Source: Planctomycetota bacterium (GTDB taxonomy: Bacteria; Planctomycetota; SZUA-567; H5-PLA8). Taken from it: a stretch of DNA of 64,000 bases. A model generated the notes under the pieces. It saw only the letters and a list, made by a program, of their open reading frames with translations, was not told the origin of the DNA and did not search any database. Position numbers and translations under genes: made by a program. Positions 16,886-54,876 of the stretch are shown in pieces. The stretch is taken from positions 341,393 to 405,392 of the forward strand of contig JABTUM010000002.1 in the NCBI GenBank assembly GCA_015075375.1, written 5' to 3'. Each line of letters opens with the position of its first letter. Positions within the stretch are counted from its first letter, which is position 1.

Positions 16886-17063
16886 TGCCGCTATCCTCCA
16901 AGGTCCGCCGAACGCCGCCCCGGCCGGTTTCCGGCCAGGTCCTCGATTTTCGGAGCCCACTCGGCCGCAGCCCATCGCCCGGCCGTTCGCCACCCGGACC
17001 TCCGGGTGCAGCCATCTTAACAAGGTGCGTTCGGAGTGCTTTTGGAAAATCGAGGGCATAAAA

Positions 17064-17097
17064 AAAGCCCGACCGGGTTGCGGTCGGGCTTTTTTAA
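17064..17097. terminator. strong bidirectional rho-independent terminator (aaaaaaagcccgaccgggttgcggtcgggcttttttaa)
   Basis: A GC-rich perfect hairpin gcccgacc-gggttgc-ggtcgggc, flanked by an A-run on one side and a T-run on the other. Confidence 0.85.
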
Positions 17098-17753
17098 GAA
17101 GGTCCGTGCGGCACGGGGCGGGGTCAGACCAAAGCCGATTGAACTGCGGATTTGGGGTGAGCCATTAATCGTGGGAAAGTAGACCTTCGTTAAGTACTAC
17201 GGAGGGTCAACTTTGGTCTCTTCCCCGCCCGCGTGTCGCTACTTCGGAACCTCCTTCTGCTTAGGTCAGATCTCATCTGCCCGGCGCCCGCGCGCCGAGC
17301 CCCATCTCTTTTGCTCAGCCTCCCGGATGCCGCCCTTCGGGACGGATGTGGAGGAGGGGTTTCCAAGGACTCCGTCCCTCAGAGCGCCATCCGGGAGAAC
17401 TCATTCTGCTTGTTCAACCATCCTTACTGTTCGGGTCCTGCCTTCCGGACTTAAGGTGCTTTCTTCCTAGTTCTTCAGCAACCCCTGCGCCAGTCTTCGG
17501 TTCTCACCTTATTCAGCGCGTCAATCTCTTCTTTTCAGTGCTTCTACTCCCTAGACAGCCGTACCAGTCGGTTTCTTCAAGCTTTTGAGTTGAACCGCAT
17601 TCTTTCCTGAACTATTTTGCTCCGAAGGTCTTACTAACTTAATCCTAAGTTTTAATCCCTTATGAACAGGTGCTTTGCGTCCGATCTAGGTCTATTCTCG
17701 GTAGTTGCACCCTAACTAAATCACATGGTGAAGACTGTGTCAATATGATTAAC

Positions 17754-17769
17754 AACCAACCGGTTGGTT
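17754..17769. promoter_or_regulatory. perfect 16-bp palindrome AACCAACCGGTTGGTT; candidate operator, possibly for the adjacent TetR-family regulator
   Basis: Seen directly in the sequence. It lies about 90 bp downstream of the tetR-family gene stop and about 10 bp upstream of a minus-strand TTGACA (17743..17738). Confidence 0.4.
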
Positions 17770-17856
17770 TTATTCCGTGTTCTATTTCGAGACAGAGTTG
17801 CGCGTGTGCAATAACTGGGAAATCTAGCGGTTTTTGATTGGCCCGGCAGACTTGCA

Positions 17857-18468
17857 CTAGGTGAGCAATAGTTTCCGAAGCGTTTCCATTGCCCCGTGGA
17901 TCGTCGATTCGTCTTCGGATTTATCCATCAGATAGACGCCGCAGATCGCGCTGGTCACGACGAAGCTTAGGTCGCGCGGGGCGATGTCTTTACGCAGGTC
18001 GCCTTGCTCCTGAGCTTGATGCAGAAGCAATTCCCAGAAGGCCAGCCAGCGGGTCCGGATCTCGTGTACCGTGCGGCCCAGTTCGTCCTGGTCGGGTGAA
18101 AGTTCGCTGCTCCAGGTCGCGAGGAGCTTGCAGTAGGACCAGTCTTTGTTGCGGTGGAGTTCCTCGATCTTGCGCAGCGTCGTCTCGATCTTCTCGCGCG
18201 CTTTCATCTCCTGTTCCAACACGGGGTAGTAGTGCTGGGTGTAGCTGTTACGGATCTCGTCCAGGATGGTGAGCGCCAAGTCTTCTTTGGTGCGCCAGTG
18301 GTGATAGAACGCGCCTTTGGTGATGCGCGCGTCTTCGAAGAGGTCATAAATGCTGGTGTTGTGGTAACCCTTCTGCGTGAAGAGCCTTTTGGCGGTCTGC
18401 AGGATCTGGTCGCGGGTCTGTTCGCCTTTGAGATAGCGGCGCGTGGAAGATCCCGAAGGACTGCTCAT
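17857..18468 (-). CDS. TetR/AcrR-family transcriptional regulator
   Basis: 203 aa. The N-terminal HTH (ILQTAKRLFTQKGYHNTSIYDLFEDARITKGAFYHHWRTKEDL) is characteristic of the TetR family. Confidence 0.85.
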   Translation of the reverse strand: MSSPSGSSTRRYLKGEQTRDQILQTAKRLFTQKGYHNTSIYDLFEDARITKGAFYHHWRTKEDLALTILDEIRNSYTQHYYPVLEQEMKAREKIETTLRKIEELHRNKDWSYCKLLATWSSELSPDQDELGRTVHEIRTRWLAFWELLLHQAQEQGDLRKDIAPRDLSFVVTSAICGVYLMDKSEDESTIHGAMETLRKLLLT

Positions 18469-52115: not shown

Positions 52116-52277
52116 GGAACCTCCTTTGGCATGAGTTTCCCGTTTCCGGTTTCGGGTTTCCAGTTAAAGGCGAAAAAATCAAAGCAGCGGACATTTGGAT
52201 GCCGCGGGCCGGTTGGCCGTTCTCCGGAAACCGGAAACCCATCTTTACGTTTTTTCCCCGTCCCGTAACCTCCCCCC

Positions 52278-53585
52278 ATGTCCCGCACACTTTTTTTCCT
52301 CGCCGGCGAAGCCTCGGGCGATCTTCACGGCGGCAAACTCGTCGCGGCGCTTAAGGCGCTCGATCCATCCGTGCGCTGCGTCGGCATGGGCGGTCCGCAG
52401 ATGGCGGCGGCGGGGCTGGAGGTCTTCAAGGACCTCGACGGGATGCAGGTCGTCGGCTTCTGGGAAGTCGCCAAACGCTACGGCTTCTTCAAGCAGGTCT
52501 TTTACCAACTGCTCGACCGCGTGAAGCAGGAAAAGCCCGATGCGCTGATCTGCATCGACTACCCCGGCTTCAACCTGCGCTTCGCGAAAGAAGTGAAGAA
52601 GCTCGGCATACCCTGTCTGTACTACATCGTCCCGCAGGTCTGGGCCTGGAAGCCCAAGCGCGCGGCGAAGATGGCGGAGTTCATCGACCGCGCGTACTGC
52701 GTCTTCGAATTCGAGCCGCCGTTCTTCGATAAATTCAAGTCGCCGCAGCGGGCGATGAAGACGGAGTTCGTGGGGCATCCGATATTGGATTGCCGATTTA
52801 AAATTTCGGATTTCGGATTAGCCGATTTGGATGGATTAAAGTTGGTGTCGTTTCTTCCTGGGTCAAGGTTGGCCGAGTATGTACAGCATTTTTATCCACT
52901 ATTAGGGGCATATAAGAGTGTTAGCGCGAAGTTGTCTATAGGTGGCTGCTTCTTTTCCATACCCAACGGGATAAGCGAAATATCCCCTGAGTTGGTTTCC
53001 ATTAATGCAATGGGCTATGAAGCACATTTGGGAGGGTATTATGGGATAACGAAAGGTGAGTACGAATATGAAATGAGTGTTCGAAAAACTCCCAAGCCCC
53101 ATTTTGTAATCGGTGATAAGGGGTGCATAGCTGGAGGTCCGGAGGAGTTTTTGTCTAAAAGAATGGATAAATTAAAGGTGCTGGCGGATACGCACATAGC
53201 TCACTCTAGTCTGCTTCCGGCCCTCTCCGACTTCTCCGTCGTCAAATCCGGCACCTCCACGCTCGAAGCAGGGCTGCAGGGCAACCCCATGTGCGTCGTC
53301 TACCGCGGCGGGTGGGTCAGTTACTCCATCGCACGAATGCTCGTGGATATCCCTGTCTTCTCGCTCGTGAATATCGTACTCGGCAAGTACGCCGTCCCGG
53401 AACTGCTTCAAAGCGAAGTCAATCCTCAGCGCATCGCCGCCGAGATCGAACGCGGGCTGACCGATCAGAAGTACATCGAGCAGCAGCGCGCGGCGCTGGC
53501 CGAACTGCCGAAGAAACTCGGCGGCCCCGGCGCCTCCAAGCGCGCCGCCGAACGCATGCTCGCGTTCCTCGATGGGCGCGATTAG
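52278..53585 (+). CDS. lpxB: lipid-A-disaccharide synthase, with an atypical AT-rich in-frame central segment
   Basis: The N-terminus FFLAGEASGDLHGG...GMGGPQM is canonical LpxB. The central LPGSR and C-terminal SGTSTLEAGL...CVVYR landmarks are conserved. The protein is about 50 aa longer than E. coli LpxB because of extra sequence in the low-GC region at 52787-53205. Confidence 0.85.
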   Translation: MSRTLFFLAGEASGDLHGGKLVAALKALDPSVRCVGMGGPQMAAAGLEVFKDLDGMQVVGFWEVAKRYGFFKQVFYQLLDRVKQEKPDALICIDYPGFNLRFAKEVKKLGIPCLYYIVPQVWAWKPKRAAKMAEFIDRAYCVFEFEPPFFDKFKSPQRAMKTEFVGHPILDCRFKISDFGLADLDGLKLVSFLPGSRLAEYVQHFYPLLGAYKSVSAKLSIGGCFFSIPNGISEISPELVSINAMGYEAHLGGYYGITKGEYEYEMSVRKTPKPHFVIGDKGCIAGGPEEFLSKRMDKLKVLADTHIAHSSLLPALSDFSVVKSGTSTLEAGLQGNPMCVVYRGGWVSYSIARMLVDIPVFSLVNIVLGKYAVPELLQSEVNPQRIAAEIERGLTDQKYIEQQRAALAELPKKLGGPGASKRAAERMLAFLDGRD

Positions 53586-54217
53586 CAGCCGTCATTAATG
53601 CGATAAAGCAAGTAATCCTCGTTGCACCATTCGTGCGATTCGATGCGGGAATCCGAGAAGTAGCTGTTTGTTTCGTTGTACGCCGGCGTGAGCGTTTCCT
53701 CCTGAACCTGCCCGGTCAAGGTCAGCATGCGGGCGTACACATTTGCGGCGGGTTGCAGGGAGGCGTAGGGAAACGACTGTTCGAGCTTCGCAGACCAGAT
53801 CCCATACGTGGGTTGCGGCGACCACGGCAGCGCCACGTACCGCCCGTTTAATACGTACGGCGAGCGCGAGGCGATGGCGAAGCGAAACATGGGCAGCCGC
53901 CGGATTGCCCGAGCATCCGCGTCCCAGCGCGCGAGGACGTTGGAAAGGCGCAATCGAGCTTCGGCGTCCAGCTCCGCGTGGAGTTGTTCCAAAAGCCTGG
54001 GCCGTGCGACGGGGCCGAGGTAATAGAGGTCTTCCGATGCGCGTTCTCGAACGCTGAAATCGTCCGCGCTCAATTGCTCGGTCAACCGTTCGAACTCGCT
54101 TGAACTGCCCGCCGAATGAAATCCGCAAGCCCGGTATTCTTCGGCAAACCCGCAAAGGGGCAGGCTCAGAAGCGCCGCCACGATTCCGATCCGGGAGGTC
54201 CAGTGGTCTTTAGGCAT
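53582..54217 (-). CDS. secreted hypothetical protein, tandem paralog A
   Basis: Start at MPKDHWTS, with a signal peptide. It shares the pattern EDLYYLGPVARP...EARLRLSNVLARW...RLPMFRF...GRYVALPWSP with the adjacent ORF 54244..54876. Confidence 0.55.
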   Translation of the reverse strand: MPKDHWTSRIGIVAALLSLPLCGFAEEYRACGFHSAGSSSEFERLTEQLSADDFSVRERASEDLYYLGPVARPRLLEQLHAELDAEARLRLSNVLARWDADARAIRRLPMFRFAIASRSPYVLNGRYVALPWSPQPTYGIWSAKLEQSFPYASLQPAANVYARMLTLTGQVQEETLTPAYNETNSYFSDSRIESHEWCNEDYLLYRINDGC

Positions 54218-54243: not shown

Positions 54244-54876
54244 CTATTCCGATGCCGCCCAATCTCTCAATAAAACCTGTTCCACTTGCGAGTCCATATC
54301 GCCCCAATCGTTTTGGACGGGATTCATGTCCAAGCGTTGCTGCTGCGGCAGAGCCAGCATGACGGGGCTGGTATCGGACGTCAGTTCGATCAAGCGTGCG
54401 TAGGGATTCGAGCGTTGCAGCCTCACCGCGCTGGATTGGGGCACACCGCCCCACACGTTTCGCGCGGCGTGCTCCGTCGCCGGCGACCACGGCAGTACGG
54501 GGTAGCGCCCGCGGACCACCGGAGGAGCGCTCAACGCGCGGCAAAAGCAGAACAAGGGCAACCGCTGCACCGCCATTCGTTCGAGATTCCAACGCGAAAT
54601 CAGATTGGCTAAGCGCAAACGCGCCTCCGGATCGCCGTTCGATGCGCATTGCCGCTCCAAGATCGGACGAATGACCGGGCCGAGGGATTGCAGCTTCCGG
54701 TTCGCTTCCTCCCGGATTTCGTAGTCCTCGGATGCCAAATCCGGAATAAGCCGCTCCGCCGCCGCGCGCTGGGCCGAAGTGGGCGCGTAGTAGCCGTCGC
54801 CGTCGGCTTCGACGCTTGAAGCGTTCCAGGCACACGCCAACGCCGAAACGGCGCACATCCATACGAGTTTACGCAT
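54244..54876 (-). CDS. secreted hypothetical protein, tandem paralog B
   Basis: Start at MRKLVWMCAVSALA. It shares the pattern EANRKLQSLGPVIRP...EARLRLANLISRW...RLPLFCF...GRYPVLPWSP with paralog A. Confidence 0.55.
   Translation of the reverse strand: MRKLVWMCAVSALACAWNASSVEADGDGYYAPTSAQRAAAERLIPDLASEDYEIREEANRKLQSLGPVIRPILERQCASNGDPEARLRLANLISRWNLERMAVQRLPLFCFCRALSAPPVVRGRYPVLPWSPATEHAARNVWGGVPQSSAVRLQRSNPYARLIELTSDTSPVMLALPQQQRLDMNPVQNDWGDMDSQVEQVLLRDWAASE

Follow-up and report, generated by a model that had tools for sequence, protein, structure and literature searches.

The locus considered here raises the question of how a gene in a GC-rich bacterial genome can carry, between two ordinary ends and without interruption of its reading frame, a sharply bounded stretch of AT-rich sequence. 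The gene is lpxB, encoding lipid-A-disaccharide synthase, and lies in a stretch of 64,000 nucleotides (the window) from a Planctomycetota bacterium (assembly GCA_015075375.1, contig JABTUM010000002.1, positions 341,393 to 405,392). Where composition changes sharply within a gene, horizontal transfer or misassembly is the usual explanation; for the recent past both can be ruled out at this locus, and a clade of relatives shows the same break. An initial annotation, made from the sequence alone, had proposed a mosaic gene, arising by an in-frame lineage-specific insertion or a recombinational patch from a low-GC donor, or else an assembly chimera. The comparisons described below suggest that the centre of the gene is probably an inherited, weakly constrained and recombining hypervariable module that is maintained regionally in an AT-rich, rare-codon state. 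The features concerned, all on the plus strand, are as follows (GC3, GC fraction at third codon positions; omega, ratio of nonsynonymous to synonymous divergence, dN/dS; pLDDT, predicted local distance difference test score; UDP, uridine diphosphate).

52278..53585 (+): lpxB (lipid-A-disaccharide synthase, GT19), 435 amino acids, intact; open reading frame with Pfam LpxB and E. coli LpxB matches
52278..52790 (+): conserved N-terminal block, residues 1-171, ending in GHPILD, of normal composition; GC3 0.84, omega 0.02
52791..53198 (+): hypervariable AT-rich, rare-codon central block, residues 172-307; GC 0.43, GC3 0.44
52791..52841 (+): decayed, AT-shifted relic of (GCGGATT)x4 plus an LPPGPK linker, encoding CRFKISDFGLADLDGLK; predicted interdomain linker
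52854-52868 (+): LPGSR UDP/pyrophosphate-binding motif, codons 193-197, in the rare codons CTT CCT GGG TCA AGG
53010..53102 (+): lineage-specific insertion, a predicted disordered surface loop, residues ~245-275; pLDDT ~48-50, no secondary structure
53199..53582 (+): conserved C-terminal block, residues 308-435, from AHSSLLPALSDFSVVKSGTSTLE, of normal composition; GC3 0.79, omega 0.024

A sharply bounded AT-rich block in an open reading frame

The interval 52787-53205 of the initial annotation, the maximum-likelihood segment 52782-53176 and the block 52791..53198 used here are one feature. GC content in 120-nt windows was 0.40-0.47 from about 52760 to 53180 and 0.57-0.70 on either side, and a two-change-point likelihood fit placed a segment at 52782-53176 with a GC of 0.418 inside and 0.623 outside (log-likelihood gain of 23.6), bearing out the abrupt drop of about 420 bp that had been described within an otherwise high-GC lpxB. 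GC at first, second and third codon positions was 0.62/0.37/0.85 for 52278-52784, 0.47/0.39/0.44 for 52785-53204 and 0.68/0.44/0.79 for 53205-53582, and the block holds the lowest-GC 400 nt of the whole window (0.4225 against a mean of 0.646, standard deviation 0.048). The sliding-window GC and codon-usage analysis that had been called for thus confirmed the dip and, with it, an extremely low codon adaptation, the value for the centre (0.325) lying below those of all 606 equal-sized windows taken from 39 other genes (minimum 0.414). Four-fold degenerate sites in the centre were divided nearly evenly between the bases (A14 G16 C10 T14), compared with C43 G35 A2 T4 in the N-terminal block, so that GC at these sites is near 0.5 in the 400-nt region and near 0.93 in the adjoining lpxB sequence. 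Even the LPGSR motif is written in unusual codons, AGG making up 2% of arginine codons and TCA 2% of serine codons in the window; relatives mostly use TTG CCG GGG TCG AGG, and unusual codons are common to the LPGSR core of the clade. The strings quoted in the initial annotation, and the resumption of canonical sequence at SDFSVVKSGTSTLEAGL, were as described there.

Within the block the lpxB frame alone is open, each of the five other frames containing 4-12 stops. Shuffling the block gave a stop-free frame in 17 of 200,000 trials (8.5e-5; analytic value 7.7e-5), in agreement with the earlier statement that so long an open segment is improbable by chance (P(no stop) ~8e-5). An internal sigma-70 promoter was rejected as a candidate, since no match was found inside the AT-rich block, where 0.8 were expected.

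The second lowest-GC stretch of the window lies in an 800-nt gap at ~17060-17856, with a GC of 0.44-0.47 over ~17340-17600 and beyond. This gap, bounded on one side by a LemA-like gene and on the other by the gene for a TetR-like regulator (17857-18468, minus strand), has no open reading frame of at least 100 amino acids, and its Rfam hits all fell short of the gathering score and amount to noise. As a non-coding stretch without an in-frame block, it was rejected as an instance of the same phenomenon.

The block lies within a predicted working LpxB enzyme

The 435-residue protein matched Pfam family LpxB (PF02684) in two stretches with E=6.8e-75 (cut-off 22.6 bits), and its sequence matched E. 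coli LpxB (5W8N) with E=6.5e-41 over residues 4-200 and 316-424. Between the aligned halves there are 115 residues, compared with 62 in E. coli LpxB (205-266), giving about 53 extra by alignment; the earlier observation that the block holds LPGSR together with some 50 residues that have no E. coli counterpart was therefore upheld. The catalytic and UDP-binding residues of the E. coli enzyme are E15, S17, D98, P198-G199-S200-R201, T277 and E281 (PMC5785501). Their equivalents E11, S13, D94, G195, S196, R197, T326 and E330 were invariant in alignments A1 and A4, and P194 was conserved in at least 90% of sequences in both. Together with a family profile spanning both halves of the protein and a predicted GT-B fold of two Rossmann-like domains, these are the features of GT19 membership, and the gene product is, as judged by its sequence, a bona fide LpxB with predicted lipid-A-disaccharide synthase activity. 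The omega of 0.02 in the flanks would furthermore indicate a working enzyme. The source records name the window protein and most members of the clade 'hypothetical protein' despite this strong LpxB match, the variable centre probably pushing LpxBs of the clade below annotation thresholds.

An AlphaFold model of the protein (pLDDT 89.3, predicted template modelling score 0.89) had E. coli LpxB (5W8S) as its best PDB match with E=1.5e-20, followed by other GT-B enzymes. On either side of the loop listed above, the model divides the block as follows.

Residues 172-187: interdomain linker, from the heptamer relic; coil, pLDDT 71-77
Residues 188-244: beta-alpha-beta-alpha start of the C-terminal Rossmann-like domain; pLDDT >90
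Residues 276-307: beta hairpin or strand, then two helices

According to the model, the block would be the first half of the C-terminal UDP-binding Rossmann-like domain of LpxB with a lineage-specific linker and loop added. The loop at residues 245-275 falls both within the part lacking an E. coli counterpart and in the least alignable columns, and the structural modelling proposed at the outset thus kept the Rossmann core and returned the extra residues as a disordered loop of about 30 amino acids. In E. coli LpxB, UDP is held by L197-R201, T277 and E281, and the UDP contacts made within 205-266 are mostly through the backbone or water-mediated (P231, V233, G261) (PMC5785501). Side chains in the centre may for this reason be weakly constrained, and the protein would tolerate variation there, the contacts being mostly with the backbone and the extra residues forming a surface loop.

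The block is contiguous with its flanks in independent assemblies

The identical protein was present on nine contigs, the longest of 2.0 Mb, and over 1451 nt the DNA of one ENA contig and one Logan contig showed 100% identity with the window. A further Logan contig, L110, from the independent sample SRR33243636, carries a 435-residue variant of the same architecture without indels; it differs from the window at 26, 41 and 25 positions in the N-terminal, central and C-terminal blocks, respectively, and belongs to a strain diverged by 5-10%. The suggestion that two organisms had been joined at a conserved gene is favoured by the tendency of flanks common to co-occurring strains to fragment assemblies, and two contigs, L111 and L112, do start at window positions 52789-52790. 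However, because identical DNA recurs in other assemblies and a diverged strain from another sample has the same layout, with proportionate divergence in all three blocks, an assembly artefact is not supported; a centre of comparable length is, moreover, found in all ~88 relatives, and a chimera is considered extremely improbable.

A conserved-flank, variable-centre layout is shared across the clade

About 80 Planctomycetota proteins of 395-470 amino acids covered the whole query at 45-67% identity, and some 88 Planctomycetota LpxBs showed conserved flanks and a variable centre, the frame being open in all 88. Mean amino acid identity in alignment A1 was 77% in the N-terminal block, 27% in the centre and 79% in the C-terminal block, with many indels in the centre, whose length ranged from 98 to 171 amino acids; only G195, S196, R197 and E200 were invariant there. 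The alignment with E. coli and relatives that had been recommended thus defined both the inserted residues and a hypervariable centre. Flank identity and centre identity were correlated at 0.23. A profile search of contigs with alignment A1 gave distant LpxBs of 29-37% identity among the matches listed, and a literature search on LpxB and Planctomycetes yielded nothing on a variable segment.

Composition was compared in about 25 clade members for which DNA was used. In the subclade nearest to the window every centre was poor in GC3 relative to its own flanks (0.46-0.60 vs 0.68-0.94), as given here for the N-terminal, central and C-terminal blocks.

L083: GC3 0.93 / 0.565 / 0.88
L084: GC3 0.94 / 0.455 / 0.89
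L085: GC3 0.825 / 0.50 / 0.805
L087: GC3 0.85 / 0.51 / 0.82
L088: GC3 0.78 / 0.60 / 0.68

In the dip it is mainly C that is lost, the fraction of C at third positions (C3) falling from 0.45-0.57 to 0.09-0.17 while that of G (G3) is unchanged (0.29-0.37). In a more distant subclade the dip was small or absent (L095, 0.81 / 0.73 / 0.74; L102 and L105 still higher). The initial annotation had reckoned with close relatives carrying the extra segment at normal genomic GC: relatives do carry the segment, but it is GC-poor in the nearest subclade and of normal composition only in the distant one. Pairwise DNA identity between centres of the nearest subclade was 42-54%, compared with a shuffled baseline of 41.5 +/- 2.5 and with 78-91% for the flanks. 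As these centres are saturated in divergence yet share a low GC, the AT-rich composition would appear to be a maintained regional state rather than the fading trace of one event. A frameshift or an inversion was rejected as the origin of the divergence, the minus strand and the other frames being filled with stops and the DNA itself being at baseline identity between species.

Divergence from a close relative argues against a recent foreign patch

Between the window and L110, synonymous divergence (dS) was 0.247, 0.262 and 0.286 and omega 0.020, 0.264 and 0.024 in the N-terminal, central and C-terminal blocks, respectively; the L109/L113 pair, from a second lineage, gave omega values of 0.115, 0.404 and 0.097, dN/dS being drawn from three close pairs in all. 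Since dS in the centre equals that of the flanks, the block has travelled with the gene at a normal mutation rate, sharing the history of its flanks since the split from L110. The block is translated and its frame kept open, and purifying selection is strong in the flanks and about 10-fold weaker in the centre, where the average omega of 0.26 and 0.40 in these two pairs, among few close sequences, gives no overall signal of positive selection. GC of the centre was 0.431 in the window and 0.458 in L110, the block having thus been GC-poor already in the common ancestor of the two lineages.

Furthermore, the block is colinear with the clade consensus over its first 27 codons (DCGLRIADCGLKLPPGPKTVAFLPGSR vs DCRFKISDFGLADLDGLKLVSFLPGSR), the differences being mostly from G/C to A/T (e.g. 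CCG->TTG, CCG->TTA, TCG->TCA). Wherever L110 and the window differ in this stretch L110 has the consensus state, and the window lineage has therefore shifted further to AT within the resident sequence. Searched exhaustively with HMMER against 1.84 billion protein representatives, the 140-residue block returned two marginal hits (E ~4e-4), both spurious and both rejected as repetitive proteins that match many unrelated Pfam families without a significant stretch. None of the ~25 clade loci with DNA had low-GC flanks (flank GC3 0.61-0.94).

A replacement of the centre, by recombination in the flanks, with that of a relative of ~43% GC would account for the sharp compositional edges, and codon-position values of 0.47/0.39/0.44 would be in keeping with coding DNA of a genome of 43-45% GC. 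Recombinational replacement of the centre also occurs in this gene family, as described below, and the breaks of contigs L111 and L112 at the block edge are what divergent alleles would be expected to produce. A recent patch is nevertheless not supported, given the equal dS, the lack of a sampled donor and the colinear first 27 codons: a jump in dS at the block edges, present in another pair (L114/L115), is absent against L110, which also carries the block, and any import would consequently be older than that split. No donor-like sequence was found among the 1.84 billion representatives and no sampled clade member has low-GC flanks; at least five lineages have their own unalignable GC-poor centres, which would demand as many imports from unsampled donors, and the heptamer relic of the window lineage shifted further to AT after the split from L110. 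Import from a low-GC donor is therefore judged distinctly unlikely. From the mosaic gene proposed initially, the compositional mosaic and an in-frame lineage-specific extension of ~53 amino acids relative to E. coli stand, whereas the recent patch from a low-GC donor does not.

Centre alleles are exchanged between conserved flanks

At 95-99% flank identity, centre identity was bimodal, being either at least 81% or at most 60%; the P0003-P0004 contrast below is at protein level.

High-identity centres: P0001-P0124, 87%; P0003-P0125, 87%; P0024-P0133, 99%
Low-identity centres: P0041-P0048, 60% (with 99% flanks); P0009-P0012, 39%; P0004-P0125, 32%; P0003-P0004, 29%

At the DNA level, L114:1501-2760 and L115:1501-2760, which belong to a lineage other than that of the window, gave dS values of 0.30, 1.06 and 0.31 for the N-terminal, central and C-terminal blocks, with omega unchanged (~0.1) and no GC dip, and this pair is a clean case of a centre replaced by a homologous older allele. 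The bimodal centre identity and the dS of 1.06 vs 0.30 in this pair together show that homologous recombination, with the conserved flanks as its anchors, also replaces whole centre alleles in the clade. A centre decoupled from its flanks, combined with allele replacement, is the feature of a mosaic with conserved ends and a hypervariable middle, and it was found in this family.

Between L084 and L087, DNA identity was ~90% up to the arginine codon of LPGSR, fell to baseline within a few bases for ~290 nt, and was back at ~90% at VSDFSVVK. L110 and L111 differed at 11 sites in the centre and 22 in the C-terminal block. The first base of L111 corresponds to window position 52790 and that of L112 to 52789; as the two contigs come from two samples (SRR22452305, DRR491769) and begin at the block edge, their starts suggest assembly-graph forks at which one conserved flank leads into alternative centre alleles of the same community. 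As a separate observation, the lpxB flanks of L084 and L087 are ~90% identical while the remainder of these 4-9 kb loci is unalignable and the neighbouring genes differ, which may reflect either a fluid gene order or movement of the conserved lpxB parts between lineages.

A heptamer array marks the 5' edge of the block

The relic at the start of the block is codon-for-codon colinear with DCGLRIADCGLKLPPGPK of L098, L083 and L091, in which four perfect or near-perfect GCGGATT units encode CGLRIADCGL (L083:4515-4542, L091:1569-1589, L098:2636-2663). Two exact units are left in the window array (52791-52820), and L110 keeps more of the ancestral states. Imperfect arrays were seen in L095, L100, L109 and L110-112, the array is split by an insertion in L094 and L099, and QPKPPKLE stands in its place in L084, L085, L087 and L088. 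Across 112 loci the array occurred nowhere but directly at the 5' boundary of the variable block. Each GCGGATT unit has a GGA motif, the array uses the non-preferred codons GGA, TTG and ATT, and its nucleotide sequence is preserved between lineages with flank identities of about 77-81%, which suggests a constraint on DNA or RNA, or concerted evolution. The pattern of a phase-variable contingency locus was not found, all perfect arrays having four units in frame, although sampling by protein would miss frameshifted copies. A dispersed repeat or mobile element was likewise rejected, there being no other copy of the block in the 64-kb window or of the heptamer array in the 112 loci.

What maintains the AT-rich state

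In the account considered probable here, the centre would be a hypervariable module that is flanked by two ultra-conserved blocks and passed on by vertical inheritance in ~88 LpxBs, and its AT-richness would most likely result from AT-biased mutation where the force that raises GC elsewhere in the genome is weak. That force would be recombination-associated biased gene conversion, codon selection or both, and its weakness in the centre may be explained, in what is the least secure step, by divergent alleles being unable to form the heteroduplex that the flanks can form. A putative failure of biased gene conversion was favoured over selection for AT-rich or rare codons, as it ties AT-richness to the allele divergence and the recombination pattern seen here and part of the family does without AT-richness. 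Variable residues had a GC3 of 0.82 (N-terminal) and 0.71 (C-terminal) in the flanks but 0.43 in the centre, where conserved residues are still C3-poor, and the AT-rich, rare-codon state is accordingly a property of the region and not of individual residues.

Several observations weigh against this account. Intergenic DNA in the window has a GC of ~0.55-0.60, the block lying well below it at 0.43, and fast-evolving neighbouring genes (38-46% amino acid identity to L083) keep a GC3 of 0.73-0.81, so that weak protein constraint alone is insufficient. Equally variable centres of the distant subclade have near-normal GC3 (L095, 0.73; L096, 0.70), and variability and AT-richness can therefore be uncoupled. 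A simple-model calculation with a neutral centre and selected flanks predicts a dS ~1.6-fold higher in the centre, which was not seen, the counts behind the comparison being small (20 vs 23-24 changes). The direction of the centre changes on the window branch (19 strong-to-weak vs 9 weak-to-strong) is weakly significant and derives from an unrooted three-taxon tree. A rate-based rejection of divergence in place was abandoned, as intergenic DNA is also unalignable between the species compared and synonymous sites in the flanks are compositionally constrained.

A first alternative is that the ~400-nt stretch of rare codons is itself kept by selection, either slowing ribosomes for folding of the N-terminal domain or for assembly of the C-terminally swapped dimer, or serving as an AU-rich mRNA segment in post-transcriptional control, the amino acid variability being a separate matter of a tolerant scaffold. 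This would explain why the composition is kept in several lineages with saturated centres, why even the invariant LPGSR uses rare codons (AGG, 2% of arginine codons), why the effect covers a whole region, sharply delimited and starting directly after the N-terminal domain, and why centre dS does not exceed flank dS, a result to be expected of synonymous sites that are constrained in the centre as well. Position-specific conservation of rare-codon clusters is documented (PMC5438181), and LpxB is a C-terminally swapped dimer (PMC5785501). Another subclade, however, has near-normal GC3 in the same region (L095, L096, L102, L105), and the four-fold sites of the block are uniform rather than skewed to particular rare codons. 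The known conserved rare-codon clusters are, moreover, much shorter than 136 codons, and selection for slow translation or an AU-rich message is considered unlikely. A centre that had instead lost nearly all constraint would drift to an AT-rich mutational equilibrium, selection for accurate codons persisting at important residues only; the 10-fold higher omega, the uniform four-fold sites and a centre as unalignable between species as intergenic DNA fit such neutral decay. Yet omega is 0.26 and not 1, the frame is open in all 88 relatives, and the predicted Rossmann core is kept at a pLDDT of >90. The residue classes largely refute it (variable flank residues with a GC3 of 0.71-0.82, conserved centre residues poor in C3), the GC of intergenic DNA (0.55-0.60) and the GC3 of fast neighbouring genes (0.73-0.81) point the same way, and pure decay is thus very unlikely.

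Local hypermutation, by a diversity-generating retroelement or targeted deamination, would confine hypervariability to a sharply bounded segment, and the coding strand is indeed depleted of C (C3 0.09-0.17, while G3 is 0.29-0.37). It is nonetheless highly improbable, for dS in the centre equals that of the flanks, the sequence is identical across independent samples, the 64-kb window holds no second (template) copy, and the changes comprise indels and all substitution types rather than adenine-specific ones. A search for a template repeat of the block found none in that window (word size 7, E<=10), a reverse transcriptase not having been searched for. Finally, the centre may be a polymorphic cassette of old allelic lineages that balancing or diversifying selection preserves and that pass from species to species by way of the flanks, in the manner of antigenic or phage-receptor loci but in a cytoplasmic, essential lipid A enzyme; we hold this to be improbable. 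If correct, it would call for an antagonist with affinity for this face of LpxB, for example an inhibitor encoded by a phage or a competitor, and thus for an antagonist of lipid A synthesis that has gone unrecognised; AT-richness would then be the long-term signature of suppressed recombination between alleles.

Comparison with known systems

In fliC flagellin and in the target-recognition domains of the type I restriction subunit HsdS, conserved ends enclose a hypervariable, often lower-GC centre that is exchanged by recombination; these centres are surface-exposed or specificity-determining, and their diversification has an obvious selective agent. The clade's lpxB resembles them in that conserved flanks act as recombination anchors and in that centre alleles are far more divergent, incongruent and compositionally deviant. 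It differs in that LpxB is a cytoplasmic membrane-associated housekeeping enzyme and the centre has an average omega of 0.26. The tolerance of extra in-frame residues at a surface position of a conserved enzyme recalls the Rickettsia palindromic elements, which are in-frame selfish repeat insertions; unlike these, neither block nor array has a second copy (in the window and the 112 loci, respectively), and the shift also covers ancestral LpxB sequence including LPGSR. With the variable regions of diversity-generating retroelements the block shares sharp bounds around a hypervariable coding segment, but it lacks a template repeat and a synonymous excess, contains indels, and occupies the middle of an enzyme instead of a C-terminal ligand-binding fold. 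Conserved rare-codon clusters (Chaney et al. 2017, PMC5438181) likewise occupy the same family position in several lineages and start after a domain boundary, whereas the present block extends over 110-140 codons, has lost amino acid conservation and is missing from part of the family. A match by sequence and the best one by structure is E. coli LpxB itself (5W8N/5W8S/5W8X; PMC5785501), whose catalytic and UDP-binding residues are conserved here; the differences are the 115 vs 62 intervening residues, their hypervariability, their AT-rich, rare-codon composition in the nearest subclade and the predicted disordered loop of ~30 amino acids.

The locus offers a natural experiment on what keeps GC high in GC-rich bacteria, as the compared regions share one transcript and the same synonymous rate; with population data, the effects of codon selection, biased gene conversion and mutation bias could be told apart here. 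The tolerance of almost any sequence by half of the UDP-binding domain, in an enzyme that is essential and an antibiotic target, also bears on inhibitor design and on annotation pipelines.

Genes and repeats adjoining lpxB

Directly downstream of lpxB and convergent with it lie two hypothetical genes in tandem that resemble each other (53582-54217 and 54244-54876, minus strand). A similar pair without a Pfam domain occurs in L083 (5356-5886 and 5897-6496), 38-46% identical over partial lengths. Upstream, the intergenic region between lpxB and a divergent GFO/IDH/MocA oxidoreductase gene contains inverted heptamer repeats at 52131-52156 and 52224-52242. These repeats (GTTTCCGGTTTCGGG / CCGGAAACCGGAAAC; 15 nt, 93% complementary, 67 nt apart) could be a candidate operator pair or part of a structured 5' leader.

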